Below, one piece after another: positions 875 through 18,299 of a stretch of DNA of 63,029 nt; within the stretch, counting starts at the first letter, position 1, and every line of letters begins with the position of its first letter. The position numbers and the translations under genes were made by a program. Source of the stretch: Candidatus Thorarchaeota archaeon (GTDB lineage Archaea; Asgardarchaeota; Thorarchaeia; Thorarchaeales; Thorarchaeaceae); the NCBI GenBank assembly GCA_048882485.1, contig JBHLRP010000017.1, positions 1-63,029 of the forward strand, read 5' to 3'. The notes under the pieces were generated by a model. That model saw nothing but the letters and a program-made list of their open reading frames with translations, had not been told where the DNA came from and did no database searches.

Positions 875-1027
875 TGTTCATCTTCACCTACGTGGGGAAG
901 GTACGAGGGAGCCTCACTTCGCCCTGCTTAAGTATTTGATGGCCTGACCTCTGTATCTGCCCTCCACTGATTGCGTGACCCTTTGCTGATGGGTCAAGAT
1001 GGTGCAATATGCAGACTTGATTCAGGA

Positions 1028-1759
1028 TTAACCTGTTTGGAGTGCCCTTCTCTGGAAGAAATTGCCTAGGAGTATGATCCACCACCCGATTGCGTGTGTG
1101 CTCACTATCGCTAGACCAATGCCACTGAAGAACGAGTCCCAACCTGGCATACTCAGCAGCTGGCTAGTGCCTAGTAGGAACTCGCCTAAGAACCAGATCA
1201 AGACGCCGATCAAAGTTAGCCATATCCACATTACTCGAGCAGTACCTTTGATTCTGTCTTGGCCAACATATCGAAAAGTGGTGTAGAGTGGAATCAAGGC
1301 CATGTATATTGTCACAAAGATGGCATCTGTGACTAACCACGCATCTCGATATGGACTTGATACAATCGAAAAGGTGCCAATCATGAGCACCTCGTAGACA
1401 ATTGGCAGGATTAGGAGTACGATGACTAGCCATTTGCGGTCATTGATTAAGTCTGGCAATGCCCAGATGAAGCAGTAAACCGCTAATAGGAAAAGCCAGA
1501 TGCCCCTTACCCCGAAGTCGATATATCGAGCAAGAGACCACTCCATTAAGGGCATATTCATTCGTTCCATTGTTACTACAAGCCATCCTATTGCCACGAA
1601 AAGGTATCCTAGAAAGGCTAGAAGTGAGAGGGTCCTAGTTCTACCTGAACCCCCAATGAAACCCCATAGCATGAGGAGAACCAGAAGGAAGATTGGAATC
1701 ATCCCTAGGATTCCCATGCTGTTTACTAGTAGCTCAAATTGCACATTAGCAACCTCCAC
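1028..1759 (-). CDS. Hypothetical integral membrane protein, about 7 TM helices
   Basis: 243 aa with seven hydrophobic segments and short loops. Confidence 0.75.
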   Translation of the reverse strand: MEVANVQFELLVNSMGILGMIPIFLLVLLMLWGFIGGSGRTRTLSLLAFLGYLFVAIGWLVVTMERMNMPLMEWSLARYIDFGVRGIWLFLLAVYCFIWALPDLINDRKWLVIVLLILPIVYEVLMIGTFSIVSSPYRDAWLVTDAIFVTIYMALIPLYTTFRYVGQDRIKGTARVMWIWLTLIGVLIWFLGEFLLGTSQLLSMPGWDSFFSGIGLAIVSTHAIGWWIILLGNFFQRRALQTG

Positions 1760-2084
1760 ACTTAACCTTGCGGCATCGTTGAACTACTATTTAAGTAGTT
1801 TCAAAATTATACCTAGCTCTTCTCATCAGCTCGCATAAACTAGTCCCAGATGCCTTCACTATATTCTCTTGTCTTTTCATACTCCCTTCTTGCAATGTAA
1901 TAACAGATTGCTGCTACAACGGCCATTGGAATGATGAAACCAAGAAATATAGCGGGATGCAATGGAGGGGCTGGATAAGTCATTGGATTTCTGTATTCCT
2001 AGATTTGTACTTCAGTCTACTTATTCAATTAAGCCAATATTTTCTATCAGTTTGCGGGCAAGATTCCTTCAACTGGATGCCTAT

Positions 2085-3293
2085 TCATCTCCTCTTCCGC
2101 ATAAGGATAACCATCGGCATAACAGCAAAAACTGCTATGATCGATGCGTATCCTACTAGGTCAGTACCGATGCCACCTAAGACGTAAAGAATAACGTAAA
2201 CAATTGCGGAGTCGTTGATTGAATTGCCACTGCCATCAATGAACCTGATTGTGATATTATGTGCGCCTTCATCAAGCCCTCCCACATCTACTCTGATACT
2301 CTGAAGATGCCATATGCCTGATTGAAGGATTCTACCCTCCTTAGCAACTTCGTATCTAAATGGATACGCGTCGTGAGCTGTCCAATTGATGAGATGACGG
2401 CTATTGTCGCCAACTTCATAGACCAAGTCCTCCGGTCTGTTCATGAAAAAGGGTGCATGGGAGTCATTGAAGTAGGCGGGATAGCGATCGAACGCTTCCC
2501 CAGTACCTTCAATTGCATGAATGCCGCTGCCCTCATACCCCGCCCAGTAGTTGCCCCGGCTAATGTTGTCATCCCAGATGTTGTTTTCACCATTATCCAT
2601 TGCATTGAATGCTTGGTCTGGCTGCCCATCTGGACCGTTCCAGCCTACTCGATTATAGAAGATGCGGTTGCCTGCTGTCCAATAATCCATCACTATGCCC
2701 AAATTCTCGGCACGATAGATTTTGTTACTTGCCACAGTGCTATTTATTGAGTTATTGAAGGTAATTCCCGTGTCCGTTCCATAGATGCTGTTCGATCGAA
2801 TGAAGCATAATTCTGAATTGGATATCGATATGCCCATGTTTGTGGAATAGATTGTGGAGTTAGCCACTTCAATACTACTTGAAGATGAAATCGATATGCC
2901 ATAACCTCCTCCCGTGATGGTGCAGTTGTCAATCTTGCCATTTCTTGAAATGATGACTTTAATATTAACTGAAAAATCATCACTGGTGGAGAGATAGGAG
3001 TTGCGAATCACAAAATGCGCAGTCACATTGTAAATCAGGATACATGTTTCTGAACTGAGAGAGATATTCAGGTTCTCAATGATATAGGGGTCTGAAGATG
3101 AACCGCTTCCCTCCCAGCCCTGCTGAGGAAAATCCATGTTATTTTGGATGATTATTTGGGAATGTCCAATAATGGATGGTGTGATAGAAGGTTTTGAGAT
3201 GCTTATATTGGATTCACCTGCATTGACTCCCGCGAGTGGAGGGACAGCTATGAGCATCAACATGCACAACGCTATACTCGGCCTAGGGCTCAA
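2085..3293 (-). CDS. Cell-surface parallel beta-helix (NosD/CASH-like) protein with Ig-like domain and C-terminal membrane anchor
   Basis: Signal peptide, GSGSSSDPYIIENLNI, GISISxSxxxxIxxNxI repeats, GNYW motif, C-terminal TM followed by RKRR. Confidence 0.85.
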   Translation of the reverse strand: MSPRPSIALCMLMLIAVPPLAGVNAGESNISISKPSITPSIIGHSQIIIQNNMDFPQQGWEGSGSSSDPYIIENLNISLSSETCILIYNVTAHFVIRNSYLSTSDDFSVNIKVIISRNGKIDNCTITGGGYGISISSSSSIEVANSTIYSTNMGISISNSELCFIRSNSIYGTDTGITFNNSINSTVASNKIYRAENLGIVMDYWTAGNRIFYNRVGWNGPDGQPDQAFNAMDNGENNIWDDNISRGNYWAGYEGSGIHAIEGTGEAFDRYPAYFNDSHAPFFMNRPEDLVYEVGDNSRHLINWTAHDAYPFRYEVAKEGRILQSGIWHLQSIRVDVGGLDEGAHNITIRFIDGSGNSINDSAIVYVILYVLGGIGTDLVGYASIIAVFAVMPMVILMRKRR

Positions 3294-3373
3294 CAGGTCA
3301 TCCGGTCTCCTATGGTAGTCAGAGCGTTGCTTCCAGCTTACTTATGCTTTAAGAACCAAGCATGAATTAGGTT

Positions 3374-4582
3374 TCATGTTCGTCTCTTCAATAGACACAG
3401 AGTAACTAAGAAGAGAACTACACTCAATGCCGATGCGTAGGCAACTAACTCGGTAGCAATATCCTTGAACGGTTCATAGAGGACTGATACTTCCACAATA
3501 TCATCTGTAGTGTTACCCGATCCGTCCTCGACAGATAACATTAGAATGTAATCTCCGACCTCTAAATCACGCAGATCGACCGTGTATTCATTTTCAAGCC
3601 ATACACCTCTACTTATAGTCAAGGCGCCCCTACGGATTGTGTATTCCAGCGGATATGCATCTCTTGGATGCCAAGTGACATTTTTGTTGTCGGCTTCTCC
3701 CATCTTAACATCTTCCGGCGAATTGGTTACGGGCGCTTCTCGATCAAGCAGTAGTGTTGGAAACGAGTCTTGGGAGTTGGACTCTCCACCAACATTGTAG
3801 GGACCAGGGGATGCATAATCGGACCATGCGTTGGCTTGCCACATATTGTTATTGCCATAGTCTTCAGCATTGATAGAGGTAAACGTGCGAATATCATTCC
3901 AACCAACGATGTTTGACAAGAATGCGTTAAGGGAAGAGGCATAATCTACCATGAATCCAGCATGAGTGTTCCCATAAATTCTGTTAGTAGAGAAAACACA
4001 TTGTGATGTATTGCTCAAGACAACTCCTACCGCATTTCGATATACAGAATTGTCTTCAGCCGTGATATTGAATGAATTAATGAATCTCAGCCCATTACCA
4101 CCATCGCATATGGTATTGTTAAGAATCCGCAGATTTTTTGTCCACGTCCCACGAATTCCGTCGAAACCCCCCAGTATGATGTTTTCTTCAATAGTGACAT
4201 TCTCTATATTTGTGAGCCGAATTGTCGGGAACGATGTTCGTTGACTTTGAATTCTGCAGTTTCTAATAGCAAAGCTGACATTGACATCTGAAATCCAAAT
4301 ACATGTCTCATCCAAGGTTGAGATGTTGAGCCTCTCAATGACGTAGGGATTCAACTCTGTCCCATTACCAGGGAATCCATAGCTCGCTAAGTCATCGGCA
4401 TTCTGGATAATTATCGGTTCCCAATCCTCATACTGCGCAAGCTTGAGGTTAGTCACTGCCTCAGAGACCAGCTTTTTTTCTCCGAGGTGAAATGACTGAA
4501 ACGACGAAGCCAGAACTGGGGTGAGCAAAAGCAACACAAGTGTAAGAAGGAGCCCTTGCTTCTTCCTTCCAACACCTAACAC
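3374..4582 (-). CDS. Cell-surface parallel beta-helix (NosD/CASH-like) protein, tandem paralog of 2085-3293
   Basis: GNGTELNPYVIERLNI, beta-helix repeats, NAWSDY, DAYPLEY, C-terminal TM followed by KRR; same length and architecture as its neighbour. Confidence 0.85.
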   Translation of the reverse strand: MLGVGRKKQGLLLTLVLLLLTPVLASSFQSFHLGEKKLVSEAVTNLKLAQYEDWEPIIIQNADDLASYGFPGNGTELNPYVIERLNISTLDETCIWISDVNVSFAIRNCRIQSQRTSFPTIRLTNIENVTIEENIILGGFDGIRGTWTKNLRILNNTICDGGNGLRFINSFNITAEDNSVYRNAVGVVLSNTSQCVFSTNRIYGNTHAGFMVDYASSLNAFLSNIVGWNDIRTFTSINAEDYGNNNMWQANAWSDYASPGPYNVGGESNSQDSFPTLLLDREAPVTNSPEDVKMGEADNKNVTWHPRDAYPLEYTIRRGALTISRGVWLENEYTVDLRDLEVGDYILMLSVEDGSGNTTDDIVEVSVLYEPFKDIATELVAYASALSVVLFLVTLCLLKRRT

Positions 4583-4653
4583 GAAACCACCACTTTTCAG
4601 TAGTTCTCCAATGCAAAAAACCGTTTCCGTGTACCTTGTTTGCTCTCATCCGT

Positions 4654-5028
4654 TCATATTGGCGGCATTATGATGATCTGGACACTCGTTAGGGGTCTAT
4701 CTGTTTCAGGGTCTGAGGCTTCAAAGGTATCGAAGGTCATCTCATAAACGAATCTATTCTCTCTCTTCTTCAGTTCATGAGCAACCCTGACAGAGAGTCC
4801 AACTCCCTTGAACCCATATCCCCTGATTGCCACCATTCTCTTGTCACCCTTTACCAAGTCTCGAATGGTATTGGATATCTTTGGAATGTCCACTCTTCCA
4901 GCGTTGGGTGAAATCTCTAGAAGGATATATTCCGTTGTTGGAAAGACCTCCACATCGTCCTTGACGGTTATGGCAACCCTCTCATCTCTTAGTCTGAGTT
5001 GTTCAGGAATCCGATCCCGGAGTGACAT
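4654..5028 (-). CDS. Divergent Alba/SpoVS-fold nucleic-acid-binding protein
   Basis: VAIRGYGFKGVGLSVRVAHELK and TFDTFEASDPETDRPLTSVQIII align by eye with the Alba/SpoVS core; start placed at MSLRDRIP. Confidence 0.6.
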   Translation of the reverse strand: MSLRDRIPEQLRLRDERVAITVKDDVEVFPTTEYILLEISPNAGRVDIPKISNTIRDLVKGDKRMVAIRGYGFKGVGLSVRVAHELKKRENRFVYEMTFDTFEASDPETDRPLTSVQIIIMPPI

Positions 5029-5148
5029 ATGTGATTTATCTCCAGACTCTTTAATCAACATTCTGAGGATAGAGGGTATAACTCAACGCTCATATGTAAA
5101 CTATAGACAATTTAGCACATGCCCTCTTAAAAGAGGAGACAATTCAAG

Positions 5149-6141
5149 ATGGACAGAAACAAAGCTATAGCAGCAACAGTAGCTATCATTGTGGTTTCGT
5201 CGGCGGCATTGATTGTTTTATGGTATCCAGCAACATTGCCAGATGTGAGAATTGGGTACCTTGAGAAGGATCTTCATCAATTGGCATTTCGTGTGGCACT
5301 TGTAAATGGATGGTATGAAGAAGCCGGCCTCAATGTCGAGCTGAAAGCGTACCAGAATGGGGCTTTAGAAATGGATGCGTTTCTCGGGAACGAGATTGAC
5401 ATGGGCTATTTAGGAGCAGCTCCAGCTTTGACAAAGAGGATAAACCAAGAGATTATGATAACCATTCTAGCATCGGCCAACCTTGAGGGTTCAGCTATAA
5501 TGGGTCGAAAAGCTGACTATGACTCTGGTGCAATTACCCATGTGGCCAATCTCACTGGCAAGTCAGTTTACATACCAGGCCCTTCAACTGTTCAAGCATT
5601 TCTCCTCCGCCTAGCACTGAGCCAAGCGGGACTAAGTTCCTCTGATATTACGACATTATCAACTTCGCCTGCGCTGATGGCAGATTCTCTGTCAGAGAAT
5701 GAGCCTGCGTTTGTAGCTTGGGAACCTTTCAATGCTAGGGCAGAATATGATAATCTTGCAGTTCCCCTTATTCTCTCCGGGGATATCTGGCCGCGACATC
5801 CATGCTGTGTATTGGCATCATCCAACACATTTCTGAGTGCTAAACCAGACATTGTGCAGACTATTGTTGATATCCATGTTCGGGCTGAGGAGTGGATTGT
5901 GGACAATCCAACAGAGGCAATCTCAATCGCAGCTACATGGCTAGAGATGGAGGATGCAGTATCTGCAGTAGAAACTGCATTCAATCGAATCATCTATGAC
6001 TACAATGTGAACCGGACAGGAATCCAGATTTATCTTGATTATCTGATAGACCAGGAACAGCTGCTTCCGGATAAAATACCAACCGACATAAGTGATTTCT
6101 TGGATGCTTTCATTGACACTTCGTTCCTATCTAGCACATAA
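5149..6141 (+). CDS. ABC transporter substrate-binding protein, NitT/TauT/SsuA family
   Basis: N-terminal TM; VRIGYL, IDMGYLGAAPAL, FVAWEPF and HPCCVL motifs. Confidence 0.9.
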   Translation: MDRNKAIAATVAIIVVSSAALIVLWYPATLPDVRIGYLEKDLHQLAFRVALVNGWYEEAGLNVELKAYQNGALEMDAFLGNEIDMGYLGAAPALTKRINQEIMITILASANLEGSAIMGRKADYDSGAITHVANLTGKSVYIPGPSTVQAFLLRLALSQAGLSSSDITTLSTSPALMADSLSENEPAFVAWEPFNARAEYDNLAVPLILSGDIWPRHPCCVLASSNTFLSAKPDIVQTIVDIHVRAEEWIVDNPTEAISIAATWLEMEDAVSAVETAFNRIIYDYNVNRTGIQIYLDYLIDQEQLLPDKIPTDISDFLDAFIDTSFLSST

Positions 6142-6195
6142 CATTGGAAAGCGGTAGAATCAAAAGATAGTCAGGCGGCTGACTCTCCTAGGACA

Positions 6196-7023
6196 ATGAC
6201 ATCAGCCGCTCAGACTTCAAACTTGCCAGACCAGGAAGGGCGTTCTCAATCAATCTACACACGGTTTACTGAATCATCCATCATCAGATGGCTGCTGGCT
6301 GGAATCATCCTGATTATACTCTGGGTATTCATTGCGTTCATCTCTAGAAGCACCATCATGGAAGTAGTCGACGCTTTCTTTAGGTTGGCAACTGAGGGCG
6401 ATAGTCAGGGATTTCTTCTTATAGACCATATTGCTCAGAGTGTCTTTATCGTCACGGTAGGATTCTGTGTAGCTGCAATCACAGCAATACCCCTTGGAAT
6501 TGCAACTGGCAGGTATAAGGTCGTGGATTCCATACTTGGACCCGTCGTTGAAGCGATGAGACCAATTCCACCAATTGCGTGGATTCCACTGTCACTCCTT
6601 ATCTTTGCTAGTCTTTTGTATTCACAGATCTTCATAATCTGGGTCGGCGCTTTCTTCCCAATTCTCATCAATACTACTACAGGAGTTAAACGTACAGAGC
6701 CTGTTCATGTTGATGTTGCTAAGACTTTCGGGGCATCAGAATCAAAGATACTTAGTTCGGTTGTTATTCCATCGGCTGCACCTGAGGTCTTTGCAGGGAT
6801 GCGAATCGGTTTTGGAATTGGATGGATGTGCTTAGTAGCTGCGGAGATGATTGGCAGCAACAAGGGTTTGGGATATCTGATCTGGACAATGCAGCAGGTT
6901 GGTTGGACGGGAGCAGTAATCTCAAGCATGCTAGTAATAGGTCTCATCGGATTTGCAGTTAGCTTCCTGTTGCTAATGATTGAACGAAGACTCCTCAAGT
7001 GGCGGCAGGAGGTTTCTGTGTAG
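6196..7023 (+). CDS. ABC transporter permease, NitT/TauT/SsuC family
   Basis: RPIPPIAWIP, EAA-like loop DVAKTFGAS, WMCLVAAEMIG. Confidence 0.92.
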   Translation: MTSAAQTSNLPDQEGRSQSIYTRFTESSIIRWLLAGIILIILWVFIAFISRSTIMEVVDAFFRLATEGDSQGFLLIDHIAQSVFIVTVGFCVAAITAIPLGIATGRYKVVDSILGPVVEAMRPIPPIAWIPLSLLIFASLLYSQIFIIWVGAFFPILINTTTGVKRTEPVHVDVAKTFGASESKILSSVVIPSAAPEVFAGMRIGFGIGWMCLVAAEMIGSNKGLGYLIWTMQQVGWTGAVISSMLVIGLIGFAVSFLLLMIERRLLKWRQEVSV

Positions 7024-7795
7024 CCCTTCGAGTCATCGCCTTTTCCTGTTCAACCTCAAGCACTTCTAATATCCTAGCTCGATAATCAAGACTCTCATGA
7101 GATGTCCTATTGCGTGGCCTAGGAAGATCAACCTCATAGGCAGCAATTATTCGAGATGGAATATTGCTCATTACAAGAATTCGGTCAGACATGAAGACTG
7201 CTTCATCCACGTTATGCGACACGAAAAGAACAGTCGAACCAGTTTCTTCAGTAATCCTTAGAAATTCTGATTGTATGTAATTTCTGGTCTGAAGATCTAG
7301 ATTTGAGAGAGCCTCGTCAGCTACTAGGATGTCCGGCTTGATTATCAGACTCCTTGCCATCTCAGCCCGTCGTGCTTGCCCTCCAGAAACTTCATGTGGA
7401 AAGCTATCTTCCAGCCCTTCCATTCCTACTATTCTGATTATCTCATCAGCGAGTTTACGCCTGCTGGGTATATCGGAACCAGCAATTTCTAATCCAAATT
7501 CGATATTCTCGCGTATTGTCCTCCAAGGAAAAAGCGACTCCTGCTGGAATATGAAACCCACACGATTGTGACCTGGACCCACTGGAACTCCATCTATCGA
7601 AATATCTCCCTCGTCTGGTTCGAGGAGCCCTGCGATAATCTTAAGGAGTGTTGTTTTGCCGCAACCTGAAGGGCCCAGGATACTCAGAAATTCACCGTCT
7701 TTCACTTCAAACGAAATTCCATCGAGAACTCTAGTCTCTCCGCCTTCGCCATTTGGATAAGCCTTCACAATGTTCCGAACTGAGAGTGTAGGCAA
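6995..7795 (-). CDS. ABC transporter ATP-binding protein, NitT/TauT/SsuB family
   Basis: Walker A GPSGCGKT, signature VSGGQ, Walker B ILVADE, H-loop SHNVDEA. Confidence 0.92.
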   Translation of the reverse strand: MPTLSVRNIVKAYPNGEGGETRVLDGISFEVKDGEFLSILGPSGCGKTTLLKIIAGLLEPDEGDISIDGVPVGPGHNRVGFIFQQESLFPWRTIRENIEFGLEIAGSDIPSRRKLADEIIRIVGMEGLEDSFPHEVSGGQARRAEMARSLIIKPDILVADEALSNLDLQTRNYIQSEFLRITEETGSTVLFVSHNVDEAVFMSDRILVMSNIPSRIIAAYEVDLPRPRNRTSHESLDYRARILEVLEVEQEKAMTRRATQKPPAAT

Positions 7796-7989
7796 GGTGT
7801 CACCAATCTACATCACGACGACTTCGTGTTAAATAATATGCTATTTTGTGCATTCTGCTTATGATAGTTGAGACTGACCCAACAAAGTACAAAAAGGCCG
7901 TTCGCCCTCATGGAACTATTAGAACAACCCACTAGACACTTAGTTGCAGGTCTGAATGGCGTTGTTTTCGCACCGGATGGTATCTCAAA

Positions 7990-10287
7990 TTGACCACGCC
8001 CAGAATTCTCTTCGAGATCGAGGACGACAAAAGCACCACCGCAATAGCCATGGGAGACGTCACTGGATCTGGAACATCGGAACTCTGTACAGGAGACCGG
8101 GATGGTGTCCTTAGATTATATGATGGAAGTACTGCCGAGATTAGGTTCCTCGCTCAGAAGGATCTAGAAGGTAGCATCCTGTCACTCAAAATTGCAGATG
8201 CGAATAATGACGGTCGAATGGAGATTGTTGTAGGACGCAGCCTCGATCCAGGAGAGATTCCAGGCGAATCAGGTACTCTTCAAGTCTATAGATTTGCCCC
8301 AAGTGGCCAGTTTCAACTTCTGGCAGAGTATCCAATTGACAGGTTTATCACAACTGTCATGGTGACTGATGTCACAGGGGATGAGAAGAACGAGATAATC
8401 GTTGCAGGGAGTGACTCGTCTCTTCGAGTGTTCCAGATGGATACTGACGACAAGATTACTGAATATGCTAAGCATCAGCTTGAGAACATGCCAATATCGA
8501 TAGGAATCTGTGATGTCATTGGTGATGAAATCGACGAGTTTGTCACAGGCAATATTGATGGTTCACTCAGAGTATTCAAGGTGAGAGATCATACCATTGA
8601 CGAGATTGAAGTTCTCCAGCTTCCTAGTCCAATCATCTCAGTCAAGGCAGGAGACATCTTGGGTGACAGGAAGATGGAACTGGGTGTTGTCACTCGAGAT
8701 GGTACTGTCAGAGTCTATCGCAACGAGGAGAGCAGGCTGGACCTCTTCACCAAGCTTGAAGGAGTGAATGCACTCTCCGTAGTTATGGAAGAGATCAATG
8801 CAGACCACATGGATGAGATGATAGTTGCTACCTCTGATTACAAGGTCAATTTCTACAATCTGCATATGGCCGAGCTTCAGGAACTGGCCAGCGTGAACAT
8901 TGGCGAGAAGATCCTCTCAATCAGTGTTGGAGACGCAGGAGGAGATGACAGAAAAGAAGTCCTAGTGGGCATATCAAACGGTCCGTTGAGAGTTCTTCAA
9001 GGGCTGTATCAGCTGATTCCCAAATTTGAGATTGATACGCAGGCAAAGACCGGCACTAATCTAGTTGGGAAAGTCACTGTTGCAAATATCACAAGTCAGC
9101 CAATCACTGGAGTCACTGGCAAGGTATACTGGTTCCCCAAGGACAACCTCCAGGTGTCTGACAATCAGCTCAAATTCGATCTGAATCCTGGTGAGACCAA
9201 GACGATTCAGTTGGACCTTGTGCCTACCACTGAAGGAACTGTCATCATTCGTCCAATAGTGTTGATGTGGACAGATGCTTCAGGCCAAGTAAAACAGATC
9301 ACTACGCCTGAGACTGCGATTCTTGTAGAAAAAGGCGCTGCTGTAGCTGCGCCCGCCGCCATGCCATCGGTATCATTACCCGAACCTTCGGCGGCCATCG
9401 TTGATGATTTGATAGACTATGCTCCTGCTGAAGGCACTGGCTTTGCTGAAGTAGAGAAAGCAAAAGCAGCAGAGATTCTCAAAATGACTTCAACTGAGGG
9501 TTCGGATGAGTCCTTGAGAGAGGCTGAAGAGCTACTCGATAAGCTGTTTGGAGTAGAGGAGGCCGGCACAGTCATCTCTGAGGTAGAAGAAGTCTCAGCA
9601 GTGATGGAAGACGTGGCCCCTGCGGCTCCCGCACAAGTGGTAATTGAAGAGGTTGCTGATGAGAGCGCTCTAGTAACAGAGATGCGTGCACGAACTCCAA
9701 AACCACCTCGTCCTGGCGCTCCCAGCGACAGCTACACGTATCTTTTCAAAGTGATGGTCACTGGAGAGGGAGCGGTGGGAAAGACAACCCTCGTGAATCG
9801 CTACGTAACTGGTGTTTTCGAGCGAGATTACAAGACGACGATTGGTTCTCAATTTGCCGTCAAGCTCACTCACATTTCGCCCCCAGAGCCGGAATACGCT
9901 GTGGGGATCAAGCTTCAATGCTGGGACGTAGCAGGCCAAGCCAGATTCAAGGCTGTGCGGAAGATGTACTACAGTGGTGCGGCAGGAATCATCCTCGTCT
10001 ATGACGTGACCAGAAGACGCTCATTCACCGAGCTCTCCAAGTGGGTAAAGGAGGCAGATGAGTCAATTGGCCTACGAGTGCCAATTGTTGTCGTAGGCAA
10101 CAAGACCGACCTTCCTGACAGAGCGGTTCCAGCAGCCGAGGCCAAGCGCTGGGCTGAGGACCAAGGCTTTCTCTACATGGAATCTTCTGCAAAGACTGGT
10201 GATGGCGTAGCAGATATGTTCACTGTTTTGGCTGAACAGATGTGGCGCGATGCAAAGAAAGCCACTGAGGCAAAGAAAAGCAAGTAG
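7990..10287 (+). CDS. FG-GAP-type 7-bladed beta-propeller + Ig-like domain + acidic linker + C-terminal Rab-like small GTPase fusion protein
   Basis: Seven D-x-x-G-D-x-x-x-E repeats; G1 GEGAVGKT, G2 YKTTIGSQF, G3 WDVAGQ, G4 NKTD, G5 SAK; TTG start. Confidence 0.9.
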   Translation: MTTPRILFEIEDDKSTTAIAMGDVTGSGTSELCTGDRDGVLRLYDGSTAEIRFLAQKDLEGSILSLKIADANNDGRMEIVVGRSLDPGEIPGESGTLQVYRFAPSGQFQLLAEYPIDRFITTVMVTDVTGDEKNEIIVAGSDSSLRVFQMDTDDKITEYAKHQLENMPISIGICDVIGDEIDEFVTGNIDGSLRVFKVRDHTIDEIEVLQLPSPIISVKAGDILGDRKMELGVVTRDGTVRVYRNEESRLDLFTKLEGVNALSVVMEEINADHMDEMIVATSDYKVNFYNLHMAELQELASVNIGEKILSISVGDAGGDDRKEVLVGISNGPLRVLQGLYQLIPKFEIDTQAKTGTNLVGKVTVANITSQPITGVTGKVYWFPKDNLQVSDNQLKFDLNPGETKTIQLDLVPTTEGTVIIRPIVLMWTDASGQVKQITTPETAILVEKGAAVAAPAAMPSVSLPEPSAAIVDDLIDYAPAEGTGFAEVEKAKAAEILKMTSTEGSDESLREAEELLDKLFGVEEAGTVISEVEEVSAVMEDVAPAAPAQVVIEEVADESALVTEMRARTPKPPRPGAPSDSYTYLFKVMVTGEGAVGKTTLVNRYVTGVFERDYKTTIGSQFAVKLTHISPPEPEYAVGIKLQCWDVAGQARFKAVRKMYYSGAAGIILVYDVTRRRSFTELSKWVKEADESIGLRVPIVVVGNKTDLPDRAVPAAEAKRWAEDQGFLYMESSAKTGDGVADMFTVLAEQMWRDAKKATEAKKSK

Positions 10288-10453
10288 TCTCAGCGCGGGA
10301 GCAAGAGGATATCGGCAACACTAGCCGACCATCTGGTCAAAATGGGATTCCCACACTTTCAAGTACAATTCTCCTATGGACATGAAAAAGAGATGAGTGA
10401 GAAGTTTGCAAAACGGGTGATGCCAGAAATTTCACATCACTGGGTTGCTATCA

Positions 10454-11188
10454 TCAACGTGTGTGAGCCTTTCGGAAAATCTCTCCTTCCTGCGTGTTCT
10501 CCCATCTTCGCTCTTTTCTTGGGTTTCCTCTATCATAACAGATTCCTCCTAGTACAAAGAACAGACTTCCGAAAACGATGAAAAAACGTAATGCATTCCA
10601 CTGAGTGATTTCAGAAATGAACTCATTGGTGACAGGTTGATTCAGGGTAAAGTCTAGGAACTGAATCTGCTCTGGATTGTCGTCAATGTAGCGAGTCCCA
10701 TTAACGGTTACGTCATAGACTCCTTCCGGTAGATTTGTACTACGTGTCAACCCTCCGTAGTGATCAAAGTCTTCAGCATTTGCGTCAATGACTATCAATC
10801 CGATGATGCTTCCCTCTTGGGAAATAGTAACATTGACCTCCAGCCGTTCATTTGATGCCAAAGAAGCGATTATTCGTATTTGGACATCTGCATCATAGGC
10901 AACTGTTTCATATACTCTGAATGCGCCTTGGAATGGTCCAAGGTTGTTGATCTGATTCAGTCCATGATACGCTTTCATTGGATATGGCGCATAAATCATA
11001 GCTACGAATAATGTGATAGTAAACACAATGCTTGGTAGAAGGAGGGGTTTCCGCCAGGCCATACCTTTTCTGAGATGGCCAGATAGGGCCCCTCTCCAGA
11101 CAGCTATTGCCATTACAGCCGCAGTGGTGGTAAGTGCAATTAGTAGTAAGATTGACAGACTATCCACTGCAGACCCTATTCTCGTCAC
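10454..11188 (-). CDS. Hypothetical membrane protein (2 N-terminal TM, extracellular beta domain, C-terminal TM)
   Basis: 244-aa ORF with three hydrophobic segments. Confidence 0.65.
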   Translation of the reverse strand: MTRIGSAVDSLSILLLIALTTTAAVMAIAVWRGALSGHLRKGMAWRKPLLLPSIVFTITLFVAMIYAPYPMKAYHGLNQINNLGPFQGAFRVYETVAYDADVQIRIIASLASNERLEVNVTISQEGSIIGLIVIDANAEDFDHYGGLTRSTNLPEGVYDVTVNGTRYIDDNPEQIQFLDFTLNQPVTNEFISEITQWNALRFFIVFGSLFFVLGGICYDRGNPRKERRWENTQEGEIFRKAHTR

Positions 11189-11439
11189 CCTCTATCTTAG
11201 GTTAGTATACCTCTGAGTGAATATCAACCTTTGTCAATTCAGCTGAGTGATTAAATGCAAGGAACTCTCTCTCCCTACATATTCTAGAACATAGTTTTCA
11301 TTCAGTTCATCAGAATCTGGTAGACTCTCTAACCTGTTTCTGATTTTGCGTTGTTTTTCTTGACCTACTTGCTTGTATCTCTTGCGAAAGAAACGTCTGT
11401 ATTGTTCGTGCACGTGTGTTTTAACATCCTACAACATCC

Positions 11440-12039
11440 TTAGAATTTGCCTCGTCTGTCAGCAACACCTGCATCATACGCTGCTAGATTCATTTCTGGA
11501 TCACGAAGAATAGTTTCTACTGCTTTCCGAATTTCATCCCCACCCATTGGGATCTCCTTCAATGAAGATATGGCACCGAGCATGTACGAGTTCAGCAGCC
11601 GCAGGCCGCCTGATTTCTCCAAGGACTCTACTGGATTAAGCGCTATGACTTTTCCACAGAGAGACCTGAGTGATTCAACGATCTTGTCTGTTGGTGGATA
11701 TTCCTCAGCCTCAGAGAGGGAGCTCGGCGTTTCGACTATCGCAGTACTGACAACTGCAACGGTCTGTTGGCTCGCATACTCAATGGCTGCTCTCAAGGCC
11801 TCTAGTGGTTCCATTCCCAATAGGAGGTCAGCTTTTCCTTTTGGTATCAGAGGCCCTCTGTCCTGTTTACTGATCCGAAGATGAGTAAGAACTGTGCCAC
11901 CTCTCCTAGAAGCACCAAAGGTCTCTCCGACAACCGGACGAAGCCCATTCTGTAATGCAGCCTCGGATAGAATTCTCCCACACACGAGATTGCCCTGACC
12001 TCCCACACCAGCAATTAGAATGTTGTAGTCATCATTCAT
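11440..12039 (-). CDS. iorB: Indolepyruvate:ferredoxin oxidoreductase beta subunit
   Basis: NILIAGVGGQG, GETFGASRRGGTV, GMEPLEALR. Confidence 0.92.
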   Translation of the reverse strand: MNDDYNILIAGVGGQGNLVCGRILSEAALQNGLRPVVGETFGASRRGGTVLTHLRISKQDRGPLIPKGKADLLLGMEPLEALRAAIEYASQQTVAVVSTAIVETPSSLSEAEEYPPTDKIVESLRSLCGKVIALNPVESLEKSGGLRLLNSYMLGAISSLKEIPMGGDEIRKAVETILRDPEMNLAAYDAGVADRRGKF

Positions 12040-12042
12040 TGG

Positions 12043-13914
12043 TCATCCCTGCTTGATCGCACCATGTGGGCATACCATGACACAGGCTCCGCATCTCACG
12101 CAGACATGGTCATAGATTATTGGTCTAGCTGCTTCATCCTGCCATCCAAGAGCTACACATCCAAACTGAGCTGCACAAATCTTGCAGCTCTCACCACGGC
12201 ATGCATCTGAGTCAATGTGAATTGGGTCCAGTTCAGAATAGGCTTCTCCCATCCTCTGTTCCTCCAGTCTACAGATGCTCTTGAACAGTAGAACATTGAG
12301 GCCATCTTTACGGATGGTGTCATGAATGAGATCTATTGTGCTAGCCAAGTTCGTGGCATCGCCAACGGCATAGAAGTCAGGTTCGATAGCTTGGACTATC
12401 TTCTCAATACTCACCATCCTTTGTCCTTCAGGCTGGTCTTCCTCACCTGGATGTTTCTGGAACCCGGTCATGGCTGTAGTGGAATTGTCAAGAATCATGA
12501 ATGTGACATTCGCATTCTTGTGCCTCGCATTAATCAGAGCAGGTATGCAGGCATGCAGAAAAGTCGAATCTCCTGCCACTGCTGCGACTCTAAATTCGAA
12601 ACCAAGTTCATGAAGTTGGCCTAGACCGCTAGCAATCCCTATTCCTGACCCCATTGAGAACAGCGTACCTATAGCTTCGTCATAGAAGACTCCGAGGGAA
12701 TAGCAACCAATATCCCCTGTCACTGAGAGCTTTCCACCCAACCTCTGCTTCACCTTGCGAACAGCCCAGTACACATTCCTGTGAGTACATCCAGCACAGA
12801 ACGTCAAGGCTCGTCCAATTAGGAGCGAACGTGCAGATTCCCGTAGGCCTTCCTCCTTTTTGTCATGCCTCTTCAATTTGAAACCTAGTGCTTTCTGCAA
12901 TGCTGCGATTGCTAGGTCAGTATTCATTTCTCCGTATGCAGGTGCCGCACCATTCCGTTTACCATGGAATTTGCAGCTGACGGAAGGCAATTCAGTTGAT
13001 AACGCCCGCACTGCATCCTCTACAAAAGGATCTGATTCTTCCAGGAAGAGTACATCAGGTGCCTTCCTGATTGCCTTGTATATCAACTTCCTTGGTAGGG
13101 GATGCGTTGTAACAAGTCCCAAAGTTCCACTGCTTTTTGCACCTGCCGATTCCTTCGCCTCTTCTGCATACCTTTGGCATATTCCAGATGCAATCGTAAG
13201 AAGGTCTACATTCTTCTTCACGTGTAGCTTGTTGAATGGGCTAGTGTCAAATTCCTCTGAGATGCTCTGAATCTTGTTCTGAAGTTCCCGTTTTGCTAGA
13301 TGAGGATTTGGAACATTATAGAGCTTCTCTTTCATCTTTAGGGGTTTGGGGTAATCATAACTATCAATTGGGCTGGGATTAACCAGTCCACGAGAGTGAC
13401 CGAGTCGAGTTGTGCTTCGAATAATCACTGGTACCTTGTATTTTCTTGAGAGGTCAAAGGCATAGAGCACAACATCCTTTGCTTCTTGGTATCCCGAGGG
13501 CTCTAGCAGAGGTAGGAGCGCTGCCTTTGCATAGAATCGAGAGTCTTGCTCAGTACTAGTGGAGTGGCCTTCAGGATCATCACCAAAAATGATGACAAGT
13601 CCCCCGTCTCCACATTCTGATAGATTCATAGTCAGAAGAGAGTCGGAAGCGACATTAAGACCCAGAGACTTCATTGAGCAGAGTGCAGGTATGCCTGCCC
13701 AACTCGCCGCCGCAGCCGCCTCAAGCGCGACTTTCTCATTGACACTCCATTCTGCATGGATTCCAATACTCTCTGCTTTTCTCATGATGTATTCTGTTAT
13801 CTGTGTTGCAGGTGTTCCTGGGTAGGATGTACAGAAGCCCACTCCCGCTTCAAGCGCACCTCTGGCTAGTGCTTCATTACCGCTCATCAATCGAGCAGAG
13901 GTTTCATCATCCAT
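12043..13914 (-). CDS. iorA: Indolepyruvate:ferredoxin oxidoreductase alpha subunit
   Basis: MSGNEALARGA, YPGTP, EWSVNEKVA, FCAGCTHR, GDIGCY, TPP motif GDSTF..DN, C-terminal ferredoxin domain. Confidence 0.93.
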   Translation of the reverse strand: MDDETSARLMSGNEALARGALEAGVGFCTSYPGTPATQITEYIMRKAESIGIHAEWSVNEKVALEAAAAASWAGIPALCSMKSLGLNVASDSLLTMNLSECGDGGLVIIFGDDPEGHSTSTEQDSRFYAKAALLPLLEPSGYQEAKDVVLYAFDLSRKYKVPVIIRSTTRLGHSRGLVNPSPIDSYDYPKPLKMKEKLYNVPNPHLAKRELQNKIQSISEEFDTSPFNKLHVKKNVDLLTIASGICQRYAEEAKESAGAKSSGTLGLVTTHPLPRKLIYKAIRKAPDVLFLEESDPFVEDAVRALSTELPSVSCKFHGKRNGAAPAYGEMNTDLAIAALQKALGFKLKRHDKKEEGLRESARSLLIGRALTFCAGCTHRNVYWAVRKVKQRLGGKLSVTGDIGCYSLGVFYDEAIGTLFSMGSGIGIASGLGQLHELGFEFRVAAVAGDSTFLHACIPALINARHKNANVTFMILDNSTTAMTGFQKHPGEEDQPEGQRMVSIEKIVQAIEPDFYAVGDATNLASTIDLIHDTIRKDGLNVLLFKSICRLEEQRMGEAYSELDPIHIDSDACRGESCKICAAQFGCVALGWQDEAARPIIYDHVCVRCGACVMVCPHGAIKQG

Positions 13915-14035
13915 CTTGGACCATCGGAGTAGGCGTCAGTGGTGATAGAAAACACTTCCGACTTTCACAGCAAGAGCAATTGTACATTAAAGAAAGAAAG
14001 AAAAGGCCCGCGTCAATTTTCCTTCTGAATACACT

Positions 14036-15109
14036 ATGAGCAAAGCTCCAGGTGCCAAGAGTAAACTCACAGGAATACTATCAATCTCCCATGATAAAGA
14101 CGTTGATGGTCTGAATGCAGCGGCGATAGTATGGCGCTACGCCAAGTCAAAAGGTCTTAAGTTTGACATGATATTGACTGATTATGGCTTCTTCGATCAG
14201 GCCTTTTCGAAAGTTGCCAGGCGCAGACATACGCTCATAGTAATTACTGATCTTGGTATTGACGAGAACTCGATGAATCTCGCCATAGATGGTCTGTCAA
14301 AGGCGATTACACAAGGATGTAGAGTTGTTTGGCTTGACCATCACTCATGGAGCAAGCAAGCAATTGACGCAGTCCTCTCTCTAGGGAACAAGCCTGTCCT
14401 CAGGGTGAATCCCGACTATTGTGCAGCTGAGATCGCCCACAAGAGCCTCATGCCAAGGGATGAAACTTGTGCTGAACTCGCTCGCATTGCACATGACACT
14501 GATTTCAATTTAAGGGAGATAGAGGCAGCTGTTGCTCTTGCAGATTTGGTTTCAGTCAGTCGATTTGCTGCTATAAATAAGAAAGAGGACATGAGTGCCG
14601 CAGTGCTGCCAATAGTCACTGGCTTAGCTGAGAATGGTATAGCCGGAATATGGGACGATAAAACGAAGAAATTCAAGGACGCGACAATGGAGAAACAGGT
14701 CCGAGAATATCGGAAAGAGCGCCTCAAAAAGATGAAGAAGTCACTTGCCGGCCATTGTGATCAGCTTATTCATGACAGGCTCGTTCGCATCGTTGAGATA
14801 CCTACAGGAGTCACCACTACCGATCTCGGGACATTTCTCTCTGATGAGAAGAACCTCGAGCTTGAAGGTCAGAGATTGGAAGTGGCTGACTTGCTGATAA
14901 CTGTGAGTCAAGGCGGCCTCCTCGGATTCAGAAGAGGCAATGAGTCCACCTTGTGCAATGTAGCTGCGGGGTTATTCAATGGAGGTGGGCATCCCTATGC
15001 CGCTGGGGGTGAATATGGGATGTATGATGATTTTCAAGCTGTCTGCGATGATATCTTCTTGGCGCTCTCAAAGGGCCAAGACTGGGTCATTCCGTCAAAG
15101 GTTCTATGA
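14036..15109 (+). CDS. DHH/DHHA1 family phosphoesterase
   Basis: HDKDVDG, ITDLG, WLDHH and GGGHPYAAG motifs. Confidence 0.88.
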   Translation: MSKAPGAKSKLTGILSISHDKDVDGLNAAAIVWRYAKSKGLKFDMILTDYGFFDQAFSKVARRRHTLIVITDLGIDENSMNLAIDGLSKAITQGCRVVWLDHHSWSKQAIDAVLSLGNKPVLRVNPDYCAAEIAHKSLMPRDETCAELARIAHDTDFNLREIEAAVALADLVSVSRFAAINKKEDMSAAVLPIVTGLAENGIAGIWDDKTKKFKDATMEKQVREYRKERLKKMKKSLAGHCDQLIHDRLVRIVEIPTGVTTTDLGTFLSDEKNLELEGQRLEVADLLITVSQGGLLGFRRGNESTLCNVAAGLFNGGGHPYAAGGEYGMYDDFQAVCDDIFLALSKGQDWVIPSKVL

Positions 15110-16075
15110 GTTCGAATCCTCCTCGTCCTTTAATTTTGCCAGCCTTGCTACCGTTTCCATAATATCCACTCCCTCTTCCCAGATCTTTCTGAATGTGTTC
15201 AATGCATCATCGACCAATCCCGGATTGTCTTCCCTACGAACTAGCGCCGCCATGTCGGATGCAGGAGAGTGCGTGAGGTAGAGAAGCATCAAGTCAGTGT
15301 TCAGAGCAACCATTCTATAGGTCTTGAGAGGAGTCTTAGGACTTCGAACCACCAGGTTTCCAGTTTTCATGACTTCCTGCAGGAGCTTCCCCAATCCGCC
15401 AATGTATCTAGAGATTAAACTTGGGTCACGTGATGCATCTTCTGTAGGTACTAGAATGCTCCAGACTCTGATGCCCTCTGCCGCCTTCATCAAGAGTTGC
15501 ATTTCGGTGACTCCACTGGTTTCATTATCTCTGTCCATAACCTGTATGGAAGAGATCTGTCTTATTATGTCGCCAGGCTTTGCTTTCTGGAAAATTTCTC
15601 TTATGAGTGTGCTTCTCACATTTTCGATTCCTTCTATTACAGTCGACGTGTCGATAGGTACACTCCCCACAATCGTGTCATATGCCATCATTGTTAGGTC
15701 TCTTACTGTTGTGTCTTTTACTATCTTTAAGTCCGCTTCTACCTCGGCTTGATCGGACTTCAATTCATTCACACGTGAGGACAGCTTCGTCTTCAGAGCC
15801 TCTGCGATGATTCCTTCAGACGTCTTATATCGACGTGGGCTCTCAATTCGTTCAGTGCTGACGAAATCCTCATCCTCCAAACGGGCCAGACATCTGTATA
15901 TCCAGACTTTTGAAAGCTTCATGCCCTTCTCCTGCAGATGATCAAAGAGCTCAGTAAAAGTAACTCCAACTGAGCTCTTCTCCATGCCAATTAGCAATTT
16001 AAGAACCTGCATGTCGCGAGAAGACATGTCCACACCAATTCTCTCAAAGATATCCTTGCCACCTATTCCACTCAT
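15104..16075 (-). CDS. TrmB-like regulator (winged HTH + coiled coil + PLD-like effector domain), paralog 3
   Basis: LSKVWIYRCLARLEDEDFV wHTH, heptad segment, IEGIENV, C-terminal FRKIWEEG. Confidence 0.7.
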   Translation of the reverse strand: MSGIGGKDIFERIGVDMSSRDMQVLKLLIGMEKSSVGVTFTELFDHLQEKGMKLSKVWIYRCLARLEDEDFVSTERIESPRRYKTSEGIIAEALKTKLSSRVNELKSDQAEVEADLKIVKDTTVRDLTMMAYDTIVGSVPIDTSTVIEGIENVRSTLIREIFQKAKPGDIIRQISSIQVMDRDNETSGVTEMQLLMKAAEGIRVWSILVPTEDASRDPSLISRYIGGLGKLLQEVMKTGNLVVRSPKTPLKTYRMVALNTDLMLLYLTHSPASDMAALVRREDNPGLVDDALNTFRKIWEEGVDIMETVARLAKLKDEEDSNS

Positions 16076-16992
16076 TGGTTTCTCGACTCCGTCAGAATCT
16101 CAGCTTTTCCATAGTCCTCTGAGAAGCTCTGAATCGCATCCTCCATAAGCATTGTATTTGTTTCTCTGGAAATCCAAGTGCCAGCTAGTGGTTCTTCAGC
16201 TACGATTAAGACCATCCCCTCTCCGCTTTTTGACGCAAACTGGTACGTGGCATCTTGTCGGATGCATCTCCTCAGCTCAATATTGTGACCCTGATCTTGC
16301 AGTTTCTGAATAACAGCAGCTAGCTCCGCTGTGAAACCATCTTTGTCCACTGAGCGACACAATACTCGAGTTTCTGCGCCACTCCTTCCTAGGCAGTCGA
16401 ACAGGGCAGCAATCCCGCCTTCATGATCCTTTTCTGCCCTCATCCAGTCAATTGTAATTCGAATAATGTCACCACGATTTGCCTGCTTACATATCTCTCG
16501 CTCGATTAAGCCAAAACATGGTCCTAAGCCCTCCACAAATATGGGCTTTGGTCTAATGCGACGACCTGTCATTATTGACAAGAATTGGCTTGCTAGAGTT
16601 CCAGAGTCAAGATATCTTAGCTCCTCGATTTCAGATTCAAGCTGACTTACCCTTTTCTCTAGCTCCTTCACAGCTGTTTCCTTTGCCCTCTTCAAACCGA
16701 CTCGCATCACTTTATGACTCGAACCATATCTGTGACGATACCCTGTACGGTCAACAATAATGAATCCGTCCTTTTCCAATGAGGCTAGGCTTCGATAAAG
16801 AAGTGGATCTGACACGCCTTTCTCTCCCTCCTCTATCATGAACGTATCCTTAATGTCTTCAAAAGTAGCAAATGTTTCATGGTCTCTCTGGGCTTTCATT
16901 AAGGCTCTCAAGACCACCATTCTTCTTTCATCTGGGTCAAAACCGACCAATTCCAGTGCCGCTTCTTCCGTTGGGCGTGTCACTGCCCCCAC
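16072..16992 (-). CDS. TrmB-like regulator, paralog 2
   Basis: VSDPLLYRSLASLEKDGFI wHTH, coiled coil, FVEGLG, GDIIRIT, C-terminal FSEDYGKA. Confidence 0.7.
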   Translation of the reverse strand: MGAVTRPTEEAALELVGFDPDERRMVVLRALMKAQRDHETFATFEDIKDTFMIEEGEKGVSDPLLYRSLASLEKDGFIIVDRTGYRHRYGSSHKVMRVGLKRAKETAVKELEKRVSQLESEIEELRYLDSGTLASQFLSIMTGRRIRPKPIFVEGLGPCFGLIEREICKQANRGDIIRITIDWMRAEKDHEGGIAALFDCLGRSGAETRVLCRSVDKDGFTAELAAVIQKLQDQGHNIELRRCIRQDATYQFASKSGEGMVLIVAEEPLAGTWISRETNTMLMEDAIQSFSEDYGKAEILTESRNQ

Positions 16993-17000
16993 CTCAGTGT

Positions 17001-18044
17001 CTACTCCTTCTTGCTCCCATTACTTAAGTCTGTCCCGCCAACTAGCATTCTCACAAGAGGGCTGTCACTTGCTCCCATCTTTTCGAAATCATCAGCAGTG
17101 AGTTCGAATAATGATTTTGCATTAATCCAGTTCTCGTCAAAAGATGATATTGCGTTATCAATCCAATCAGGATTGAACTCTCTCGTCAGCCATGTTGCAG
17201 TAAGTGGGTTCTCAGTGATTACGAATGCGGTGCTCTGGTCATTCAGACTTACTTGACTGTACGTCCTTCCTGCTGGGAACACACGCACGTCAAACTTGAT
17301 TCCAGCTTCACGCATTTTGATTATGCCTTGAGCTATGCCGCCTATCCTTTGAGGGTCCATATCTCGCTCGACCAACTCACCCGCCGAGAGGATATCCAGT
17401 GTCACGAGATAACGGACATCTGCTCCTCTCTGGGCTGCATCGATGAACTTCATCATACGGTCTTCGCCTCCCTTTAGAAGAGGAGTTAGCCAAAGCACAG
17501 TAGCTCGTATCACGTCGCCTTTCTTTGCCACATCGGTTATGTTGTACTTCAGGACTCTGTCTAGTTCATCAACTCCGCGAACGATTCGCGTCGTTGGAGA
17601 TTCATCTTGACCGGTCAAAGATTTCACTAAACGCTGAGCTAATACTCCGCAATCCAGCTTCGAGATCTGATCTTGGTCGGCCTTCAGCGATTCTAACTCA
17701 TTCTGTATCTGGTTTATTCTGCTAGTCTTGAGCTGTTCTAATCCAGTCATTATTGTGTTAACATCGACAACGTAGCTCTTACGAGACTGACCCTCAACCC
17801 GCACAAGTTGGTTCTCAACTAAGGGCTTTAACACTCTATGCACCCAAGCCTTCGAGAGCTTTCCCTCAGGATTTTCCTGCAGGACAGAGTCATAGACTTC
17901 AGCGAATGTACGCGGTGCAGGAGGGGTTCCTCGAATCTTCAAGATTGCACGAAGAATCCCTATCGTTCTCGACTCCTCTTCAGCAGTACCCACATTGAGG
18001 CCAAGAATTTCTAGAGCCTCTCTAAGAGTTTCATCTTCAATCAT
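17001..18044 (-). CDS. TrmB-like regulator, paralog 1
   Basis: LSKAWVHRVLKPLVENQLV wHTH, coiled coil, IVRGVDEL, AAQRGADVRYL, FDENWINA; start placed at MIEDET. Confidence 0.72.
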   Translation of the reverse strand: MIEDETLREALEILGLNVGTAEEESRTIGILRAILKIRGTPPAPRTFAEVYDSVLQENPEGKLSKAWVHRVLKPLVENQLVRVEGQSRKSYVVDVNTIMTGLEQLKTSRINQIQNELESLKADQDQISKLDCGVLAQRLVKSLTGQDESPTTRIVRGVDELDRVLKYNITDVAKKGDVIRATVLWLTPLLKGGEDRMMKFIDAAQRGADVRYLVTLDILSAGELVERDMDPQRIGGIAQGIIKMREAGIKFDVRVFPAGRTYSQVSLNDQSTAFVITENPLTATWLTREFNPDWIDNAISSFDENWINAKSLFELTADDFEKMGASDSPLVRMLVGGTDLSNGSKKE

Positions 18045-18228
18045 GTTCCTGACCCGCCCATTTCTGAGTATCCTCAAATCTATGCTTAAACTCACAACAT
18101 ACTTACTTGATGAATGTTTACAACCACAATTGCCTTATAATGTGCGCGGATACTCTACTATTGCGGTAATATGCAGGAAATCGGCGTGGATGCGAACGGT
18201 TATCCACGGGCATGTTGCAAGTGAAAAC

Positions 18229-18290: not shown

Positions 18291-18299
18291 TCCCGTTTC

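Follow-up and report, generated by a model that had tools for sequence, protein, structure and literature searches.

A single gene on a stretch of 63,029 nucleotides (positions 1 to 63,029 of contig JBHLRP010000017.1) of a Candidatus Thorarchaeota archaeon (assembly GCA_048882485.1; this whole stretch is referred to below as the window) encodes a protein in which a β-propeller, an immunoglobulin (Ig)-like β-sandwich and a long linker are followed by a Rab-like small GTPase. The gene occupies positions 7990..10287 of the forward strand as one intact open reading frame (ORF) of 765 amino acids (aa), with a TTG start and a TAA stop at 10285-10287. The fusion is real, strongly conserved and restricted to one order of Asgard archaea, the Thorarchaeota type, and its conservation lies far beyond chance. 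It is probably a cytoplasmic single-chain protein that unites a scaffold and a switch and is specific to Thorarchaeia-type Asgard archaea, with the Rab-like switch tethered to a platform formed by the propeller and the Ig domain.

A real fusion conserved in one Asgard order

The TTG start is sound because the orthologues begin at the same residue, using ATG, TTG or GTG, and because the reading frame opens just 54 nucleotides upstream, at 7936, after a TAG. The architecture proposed in the initial annotation of the gene was borne out part by part. The seven blade motifs and the Rab-family motifs listed there are all present in the translation, the β-sandwich expected behind the propeller appears in an AlphaFold2 model at aa 342-447, the Ala/Glu/Pro-rich linker of about 130 aa lies at aa 449-577, and the GTPase is intact with all of its boxes G1-G5. 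The same is true of the predicted lack of export signals: the maximum Kyte-Doolittle hydrophobicity over 19 residues is 1.24, and therefore neither a transmembrane (TM) segment nor the h-region of a signal peptide is found in the fusion. A Pfam scan of the protein detected no adhesion, dockerin or Big modules. Judged by its sequence, the fusion protein is predicted to be cytoplasmic. Among orthologues, mean identity is 86% for the GTPase, 70% for the propeller, 62% for the Ig domain and 42% for the linker.

Over 120 clusters of full-length proteins (741-826 aa) match the fusion with 95-100% coverage and 62-96% identity, and those that are named are nearly all labelled Thorarchaeota. The distribution of the architecture across Asgard archaea, which the initial annotation had put forward as a check, was surveyed in 400 genomes of the phylum: 85 others from the gene's own family (86 with its own genome), one further genome of the order and 314 from the other 31 families. 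A full-length single ORF (residues 1-765) is present in 79 of the 86 family genomes, with fragments occurring at contig ends only, and one orthologue resides on a closed chromosome of 3.16 Mb (CP070761.1). Targeted searches detected no copy in seven of the 85 other family genomes, metagenome-assembled genomes that are 52-93% complete; these gaps are compatible with universal presence in the family. The genome from the sister family, the sole other member of the order, has a copy that is 45% identical and interrupted by two contig ends.

No full-length match was found in the 314 genomes of other Asgard families. Among the matches listed from outside the order, similarity covers the GTPase region only, with best E-values of 1e-31 to 1e-47, and a profile of the propeller alone found no orthologous propeller there. 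Two orthologues with 63-68% identity carry the NCBI labels 'Sifarchaeia' and 'Lokiarchaeota'. Both are regarded as a matter of labelling or binning, and no full-length copy turned up outside the order in the survey of genomes.

This distribution also bears on whether the gene could be a chimera produced by assembly, or the gene of a secreted adhesin of the FG-GAP type mis-joined to a GTPase gene. The one point in favour of such an origin comes from a library of 1.8 billion proteins, where, apart from its orthologues, the propeller has its nearest relatives among large FG-GAP proteins with multiple repeats (E 1e-30 to 1e-11). However, about 80 independent assemblies have the same ORF on long contigs, the closed chromosome among them, all domains are under purifying selection, and neither a signal peptide nor a TM segment is present. 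The orthologue survey already refutes this explanation, whose probability is negligible. A chimeric join in the reads, which had been named as a possible flaw, is thus excluded by the recurrence of one uninterrupted ORF in independent assemblies.

The Rab-like domain, its linker and its tail

The GTPase domain (aa 578-752; 9721..10245, forward strand) is the most conserved part of the protein. Pfam Ras matches aa 587-751 with an E-value of 3.6e-46, and the nucleotide-binding boxes can be assigned as G1 GEGAVGKT (592-599), G2 T616/T617, G3 DVAGQ (646-650), G4 NKTD (704-707) and G5 SSAK (732-735). The domain contains the RabF motifs IGSQF, KLQCWDVAGQ, RFKAV, YYSGA and LVYDVT. The catalytic Gln650, the boxes G1-G5 and the hydrophobic Rab triad F622/W645/Y660 are invariant, as checked over 18-20 orthologues; very strong constraint acts on all catalytic and switch motifs as well as on the triad that binds effectors. 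The best match among PDB sequences is Thor-Rab (7EZB, 4.7e-43), followed by Rab14, Sec4, Rab4 and Rab11, and the top 60 PDB matches are Rabs or Ypt/Sec4 proteins. The domain is nevertheless called Rab-like and not a canonical Rab because the tail lacks a Cys for geranylgeranylation.

A stand-alone Rab-like protein of 194 aa from the same genome, which matches 7EZB at 2e-54, shares 55% identity with the fused domain and, in addition, an unusual WDVAGQ form of the G3 box. Such a stand-alone copy, at 50-56% identity, exists in every Thorarchaeal genome. The fused domain can thus be assigned to the Thor-Rab lineage as a paralogue. It resembles Thor-Rab (PDB 7EZB/7EZD/7EZE) in having all G motifs, the RabF motifs and a Cys-free C-terminus, but Thor-Rab stands alone, with about 182-194 aa, whereas the domain here forms the C-terminal part of a 765-aa protein and is preceded by the propeller, the Ig domain and the linker of 130 aa. 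Thor-Rab itself is also reported to have no C-terminal Cys, and the GTPase fusions described alongside it involve longin and roadblock domains only, with no mention of a propeller (Tran et al. 2024, PMC10933270).

The linker (aa 449-577; 9334..9720, forward strand) is acidic and disordered, with a net charge of -18 and a content of Ala, Glu, Pro, Val and Ser of 61%. Two islands within it are conserved at 62-65%, compared with 42% for the linker as a whole. One of them, at 65%, is an amphipathic helix motif at aa 503-522 (9496..9555, forward strand) of the form S-L-x-x-A-E-x-L-L-D-x-L-F-G, in which L509, A512, E513, L515, L516, D517, L519, F520 and G521 are invariant over the 20 orthologues. 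The other is a segment rich in Pro, Arg and Lys directly in front of the GTPase (aa 556-577; 9655..9720, forward strand) that reads E-S-x-L-V-T-E-I-R-x-R-x-P-K-P-P-R-P-G. On inspection, the LLDxLFG sequence of the helix was rejected as a clathrin box, and F-G-x-x as a GAE-binding motif, as it fits neither consensus. Behind the GTPase, a short basic tail (aa 753-765; 10246..10284, forward strand) with a net charge of +4 and an invariant KK at 762-763 ends the protein. The tail contains no Cys RDAKKATEAKKSK and therefore no prenylation site. The near-invariant surface of the G domain, together with the conserved motifs of the linker, points to several binding interfaces.

Propeller and sandwich, and their likeness to BBSome and KICSTOR subunits

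The N-terminal domain (aa 1-340; 7990..9009, forward strand) is a seven-bladed β-propeller of the FG-GAP type. An AlphaFold2 model of aa 1-450, built from an alignment of 26 sequences, has a mean predicted local distance difference test (pLDDT) score of 92.3 and contains 28 strands up to aa ~340, which corresponds to seven blades of four strands each. FG-GAP repeats were confirmed by Pfam FG-GAP_3 (3.8e-19 over four stretches). Each blade has a D-x-x-x-D-x-x-x-E loop, and the full D-x-N-x-D-G-x-x-E form, which resembles a calcium site, is kept only in blade 2 and partly in blade 6. In bit scores, the Pfam models that match the propeller are FG-GAP_3 (69.5), Beta-prop_BBS7 (56.3), BBS2_Mid (52.4) and Itfg2 (36).

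The initial annotation had described this propeller as BBSome- or ITFG2-like, and the ranking of structures agrees with that at first sight. Foldseek places BBS2, BBS9, BBS7, BBS1 and ITFG2 first (1.2e-18 to 1e-13), with BBS2 at 1.2e-18 and ITFG2 at a TM score of 0.69 on the target, while the headpieces of integrin alpha rank below them (1.5e-13 and weaker). A second aligner, VIA, puts BBS2 first with Z 35.7 over 295 residues at 18% identity, followed by ITFG2 with Z 34.5 (324 residues aligned). The margin is small, since WD40 propellers, which are unrelated, still score Z 33.5. Compared with PDB sequences, a profile made from orthologous propellers only matches ITFG2 at 1.7e-8, BBS7 at 1.8e-4 and BBS2 at 3e-3, with no integrin alpha among its matches up to E = 1.

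The sandwich behind the propeller (aa 341-448; 9010..9333, forward strand) was modelled with comparable quality on its own (pLDDT 92.5). It belongs to a generic type that is shared by macroglobulin (MG), transglutaminase C-terminal, CARDB and GAE domains. In VIA, MG domains come first at Z 12.2-12.5, followed by the GAE domain of BBS1 at Z 11.6 (root mean square deviation 2.6 over 104 residues) and the transglutaminase C-terminal domain at Z 11.5, but these scores are statistically tied. In Foldseek, the leading matches comprise a TRAP subunit, a CARDB domain from an archaeon and MG domains, whereas BBS9 comes no higher than rank 40. A Pfam search with the Ig domain and the linker alone gives nothing but sub-threshold matches (ASH at 0.0022, BatD, Transglut_C and TRAPPC13_C). 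A β-sandwich thus follows the propeller as in BBS1/2/7/9; 'GAE-like' is compatible with the matches of the modelled sandwich and is not specific.

Whether the likeness of the propeller is specific was examined with prokaryotic FG-GAP proteins as controls. Proteins of this kind that carry dockerin, Big or DUF11 modules pass the Pfam models BBS2_Mid, BBS1, Itfg2 and BBS7 at 1e-9 to 1e-18; the control proteins P0128, P0129, P0142 and P0144 score above the gathering thresholds of BBS2_Mid, BBS1, Itfg2 and Beta-prop_BBS7. Against PDB sequences, the generic FG-GAP protein P0142 matches ITFG2 at 8.5e-11 and BBS2 at 6e-5, which is better than the Thorarchaeal profile (1.7e-8 and 3e-3). Matches of this type were therefore rejected as signs of a specific kinship. 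Because generic FG-GAP proteins of the secreted type match the same Pfam models, ITFG2 and BBS2 equally well, the likeness to BBS proteins and ITFG2 is real but is a property of the whole FG-GAP_3 propeller class, and it does not imply ancestry. Hence BBS2 and ITFG2 remain the top structural matches, as the initial annotation would lead one to expect, but a special similarity to them is not supported. It also follows for annotation practice that matches to BBS2_Mid, Itfg2, BBS1 and Beta-prop_BBS7 in prokaryotes are not to be read as 'BBSome-like' eukaryotic signature proteins (ESPs).

The comparison with known systems can be drawn up in both directions. With BBS2, BBS7, BBS9 and BBS1 (PDB 6VBU, 6VOA, 4V0M), the fusion shares a seven-bladed, FG-GAP-like cytoplasmic propeller that is followed by a β-sandwich, but it lacks the coiled-coil, platform and helical C-terminal domains of BBSome subunits. 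The BBSome is recruited by the small GTPase ARL6, which binds the propeller of BBS1, whereas in the fusion the GTPase is covalently attached and is Rab-like, not an Arl. ITFG2 of KICSTOR (PDB 9V6E, 9O5A) is likewise a single cytoplasmic propeller of similar size that has a second, paralogous propeller protein at its side (KPTN; compare the stand-alone paralogue described below), but it has no Ig domain, linker or GTPase. ITFG2 acts in a complex with KPTN, SZT2 and KICS2; for the fusion, no counterpart of SZT2 or KICS2 is known, although no search was aimed at one. Integrin alpha resembles the fusion in that an Ig-like domain (the thigh domain) follows the propeller (Foldseek 1.5e-13), and the prokaryotic FG-GAP/VCBS repeat proteins share the FG-GAP_3 repeats and are the nearest non-orthologous relatives in sequence. 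Integrin alpha and the FG-GAP/VCBS proteins, however, are secreted or located at the surface and contain numerous repeats together with adhesion modules, in contrast to a single seven-bladed cytoplasmic propeller with mostly degenerate calcium-site loops and an attached GTPase.

The protein could still be a true homologue of BBSome subunits (BBS1/2/7/9) or KICSTOR subunits (ITFG2/KPTN) and a surviving relative of their ancestor; it would then be a proto-coat or adaptor together with its recruiting GTPase that prefigures the BBSome-ARL6 system. BBS2 and ITFG2 as the leading matches of independent structure aligners, the profile matches to ITFG2, BBS7 and BBS2 in the absence of integrin alpha, the alignment of the sandwich to the BBS1 GAE domain, and a paralogous pair of propellers that recalls ITFG2-KPTN and BBS2-BBS7 would all fit such a homology. 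A single phrase in an October 2026 preprint, on one structural cluster confined to Asgard archaea and eukaryotes and annotated 'BBS7/ITFG2', can be added to them. Against this homology stand the generic controls, the multi-repeat FG-GAP proteins as nearest non-orthologues, the small margin over WD40 propellers, and an Ig domain that matches MG, transglutaminase C-terminal and CARDB domains as well as or better than GAE. In addition, the GTPase is Rab-like and not Arf/Arl-like, and the fusion is confined to one order. Pfam and the model reveal no α-solenoid, platform or coiled-coil domain in the protein, as aa 1-450 are all-β and the rest consists of the linker and the GTPase. The homology is accordingly given a low probability, and the proto-coat with its link to BBSome and ARL6, as originally suggested, is not established: the fusion is not evidence for an archaeal proto-coat. 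In a more far-reaching version, which is very improbable, the fusion would combine with its stand-alone paralogue in a complex of two propellers under GTPase control, and this complex would share ancestry with the ITFG2-KPTN or BBS2-BBS7 pairs. In that scenario, the cytoplasmic FG-GAP propellers of Asgard archaea would be the source of these eukaryotic scaffolds, and the fusion would be the Rosetta stone of an ancient functional link between this class of propellers and Rab/Arf switches.

Paralogous propellers, possible function and gene neighbourhood

The sole close relative of the fusion propeller in its own genome is a stand-alone cytoplasmic propeller of 337 aa on a different contig (C4:23001-24011, equivalent to L025:8002-9015, forward strand), which has seven blades and no fused partner. 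The two propellers align collinearly from the first blade to the seventh (hhalign probability 99.7, E 3e-25), and a profile of the paralogue behaves like that of the fusion propeller against PDB. The paralogue has the same distribution as the fusion: 84 of 85 family genomes carry it, as does the one genome available for the sister family, and none of the 314 others gives a match at 1e-10. Within the family it lies about 4 kb from an Asgard actin gene (L025:2715-3854, reverse strand). At the corresponding locus of the sister family (L028:5964-9000), it is 0.9 kb from actin with one winged helix-turn-helix gene between them, and little else besides the actin linkage is conserved in this neighbourhood. 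The stand-alone paralogue is a candidate partner of the fusion, and a connection of the paralogue to actin is a possibility that rests on this gene order. A complex prediction with three chains (aa 1-450, aa 570-765 and the paralogue as the scored partner) gave values of 0.01, 0.46 and 0.30 in separate runs; the median of 0.30 against a mark of 0.32, with no controls, speaks neither for nor against binding.

Propellers of the same class occur in other Asgard families with different C-terminal modules. Some are fused to several winged-helix-like repeats ('..YSRSAPRGY..') in proteins of 744 aa and ~552 aa, one type of 1021 aa carries DDRGK, E3-UFM1-ligase/PCI and zinc ribbon domains, and others are stand-alone propellers of 359-383 aa. 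The genes in question (L048:1080-3314, L049:655-2886, L050:1048-2706 and L051:408-3473 on the reverse strand, and L054:1032-2699 and L053:1130-2281 on the forward strand) have Beta-prop_BBS7 and Itfg2 among their top Pfam matches; for the ~552-aa family, Beta-prop_BBS7 is the top match at 1e-21. No GTPase is present in any of the other Asgard propeller fusions that were found, and Pfam detects no secretion-type or surface module in them; their architectures look cytoplasmic. The propeller would thus seem to serve Asgard archaea as a cytoplasmic module for interactions that can be reused, and the Thorarchaeal version with Ig domain and Rab-like GTPase is one lineage-specific combination.

For the switching of the protein, its docking in cis or in trans, its association with membranes and its partner, we infer the following model. 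Most likely in the ancestor of the order, a paralogue of the Thor-Rab-type GTPase would have been joined, through the acidic flexible linker of about 130 aa, to an FG-GAP propeller with an Ig domain. The Rab-like domain would cycle between GTP and GDP, and its nucleotide state would control the action of the tethered platform. This could be achieved in two ways: the GTPase or the conserved helix of the linker may dock onto the propeller/Ig platform in cis, or the platform may be brought to partners, or to an acidic (anionic) membrane, through the GTPase and the basic tail. The co-conserved stand-alone propeller would be a candidate for such a partner. That the propeller and the GTPase of the fusion work together is reasonable by 'Rosetta stone' logic, and to this extent the Rosetta-stone argument of the initial annotation stands. 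Several observations weigh against the model. The tail is short (+4) and has no lipid anchor, the identical phyletic patterns of the two paralogues can stem from one duplication in the ancestor of the order without any interaction, and the conserved neighbourhood of the fusion gene reflects synteny and offers no functional partner.

Two further explanations must be considered besides this scaffold with a tethered switch. The protein may be a sensor-type signalling GTPase with a ROCO- or STAND-like logic, in which the propeller and the Ig domain bind a ligand or target and the GTPase provides the output, unrelated to membranes or coats. This would be in line with the many multidomain prokaryotic GTPases that have repeat domains, with a match of Pfam Roc to the G domain (4.2e-30), and with the other Asgard fusions to winged-helix and UFM1-system-like domains, which suggest a general protein-binding module. 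However, the Roc match is a generic match to the Ras fold. Pfam finds neither a COR domain nor another hallmark of ROCO proteins in the fusion, in which only 13 residues come after the C-terminal G domain, and this domain bears the Rab triad and is specifically Rab-like; a sensor of this type is therefore rather unlikely. Alternatively, the fusion and its paralogue may act on or with Asgard actin as a cytoskeleton-linked regulator with the Rab-like domain as its switch, as the linkage of paralogue and actin in both families could indicate. Kaptin, an actin-associated propeller protein, provides a loose analogy. This role is quite improbable, as Thorarchaeal genomes are highly syntenic and the linkage may be inherited gene order, actin does not lie near the fusion gene, and neither a motif nor a domain for actin binding was identified.

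The preferred reading as a scaffold with a tethered switch is of interest because Asgard small GTPases are numerous, while almost nothing is known of what they switch. Here, a Rab-like switch is covalently tied to its probable working partner, and the fusion has been kept across a whole order with hardly any change in the G domain. This makes the fusion a tractable pair of domains for studying the binding partners of an archaeal Rab-like protein, their dependence on nucleotide and an involvement of membranes or actin, and thereby a useful handle on Asgard GTPase biology. The combination of domains is apparently undescribed, as had been suspected, and built from known kinds of parts: full-text searches of the accessible literature on Asgard archaea revealed no description of a propeller-Ig-Rab architecture. 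A 2020 preprint on Asgard diversity and asCOGs states that most multidomain ESP architectures are lineage-specific and does not mention this fusion.

The fusion gene is apparently monocistronic, being divergent from the upstream ABC ATPase gene and convergent with the genes downstream. It is part of a conserved Thorarchaeal synteny block (window 299-19529) that consists of POR gamma, two or three NosD-like β-helix proteins, a small Alba-like ORF, an NMT1-type ABC transporter, the fusion, a fused 2-oxoacid:ferredoxin oxidoreductase, a DHH phosphoesterase and three tandem TrmB-like genes. Beside a 41%-identical orthologue (P0124, locus L004), only the small ORF, the POR genes and DHH are kept. 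Gene context was rejected as a guide to function, as the neighbours look like inherited synteny.

Convergent with the fusion gene, an ORF of 244 aa (window 10454-11188, reverse strand) has no Pfam match and is absent or replaced at the same position in other Thorarchaeota; it may be a lineage-specific insertion or a non-gene. At locus L004, which belongs to a divergent genome, the region 11794-15486 (reverse strand), just downstream of the fusion and DHH, encodes an Arf-family protein of 319 aa and a protein of 886 aa without a Pfam match.

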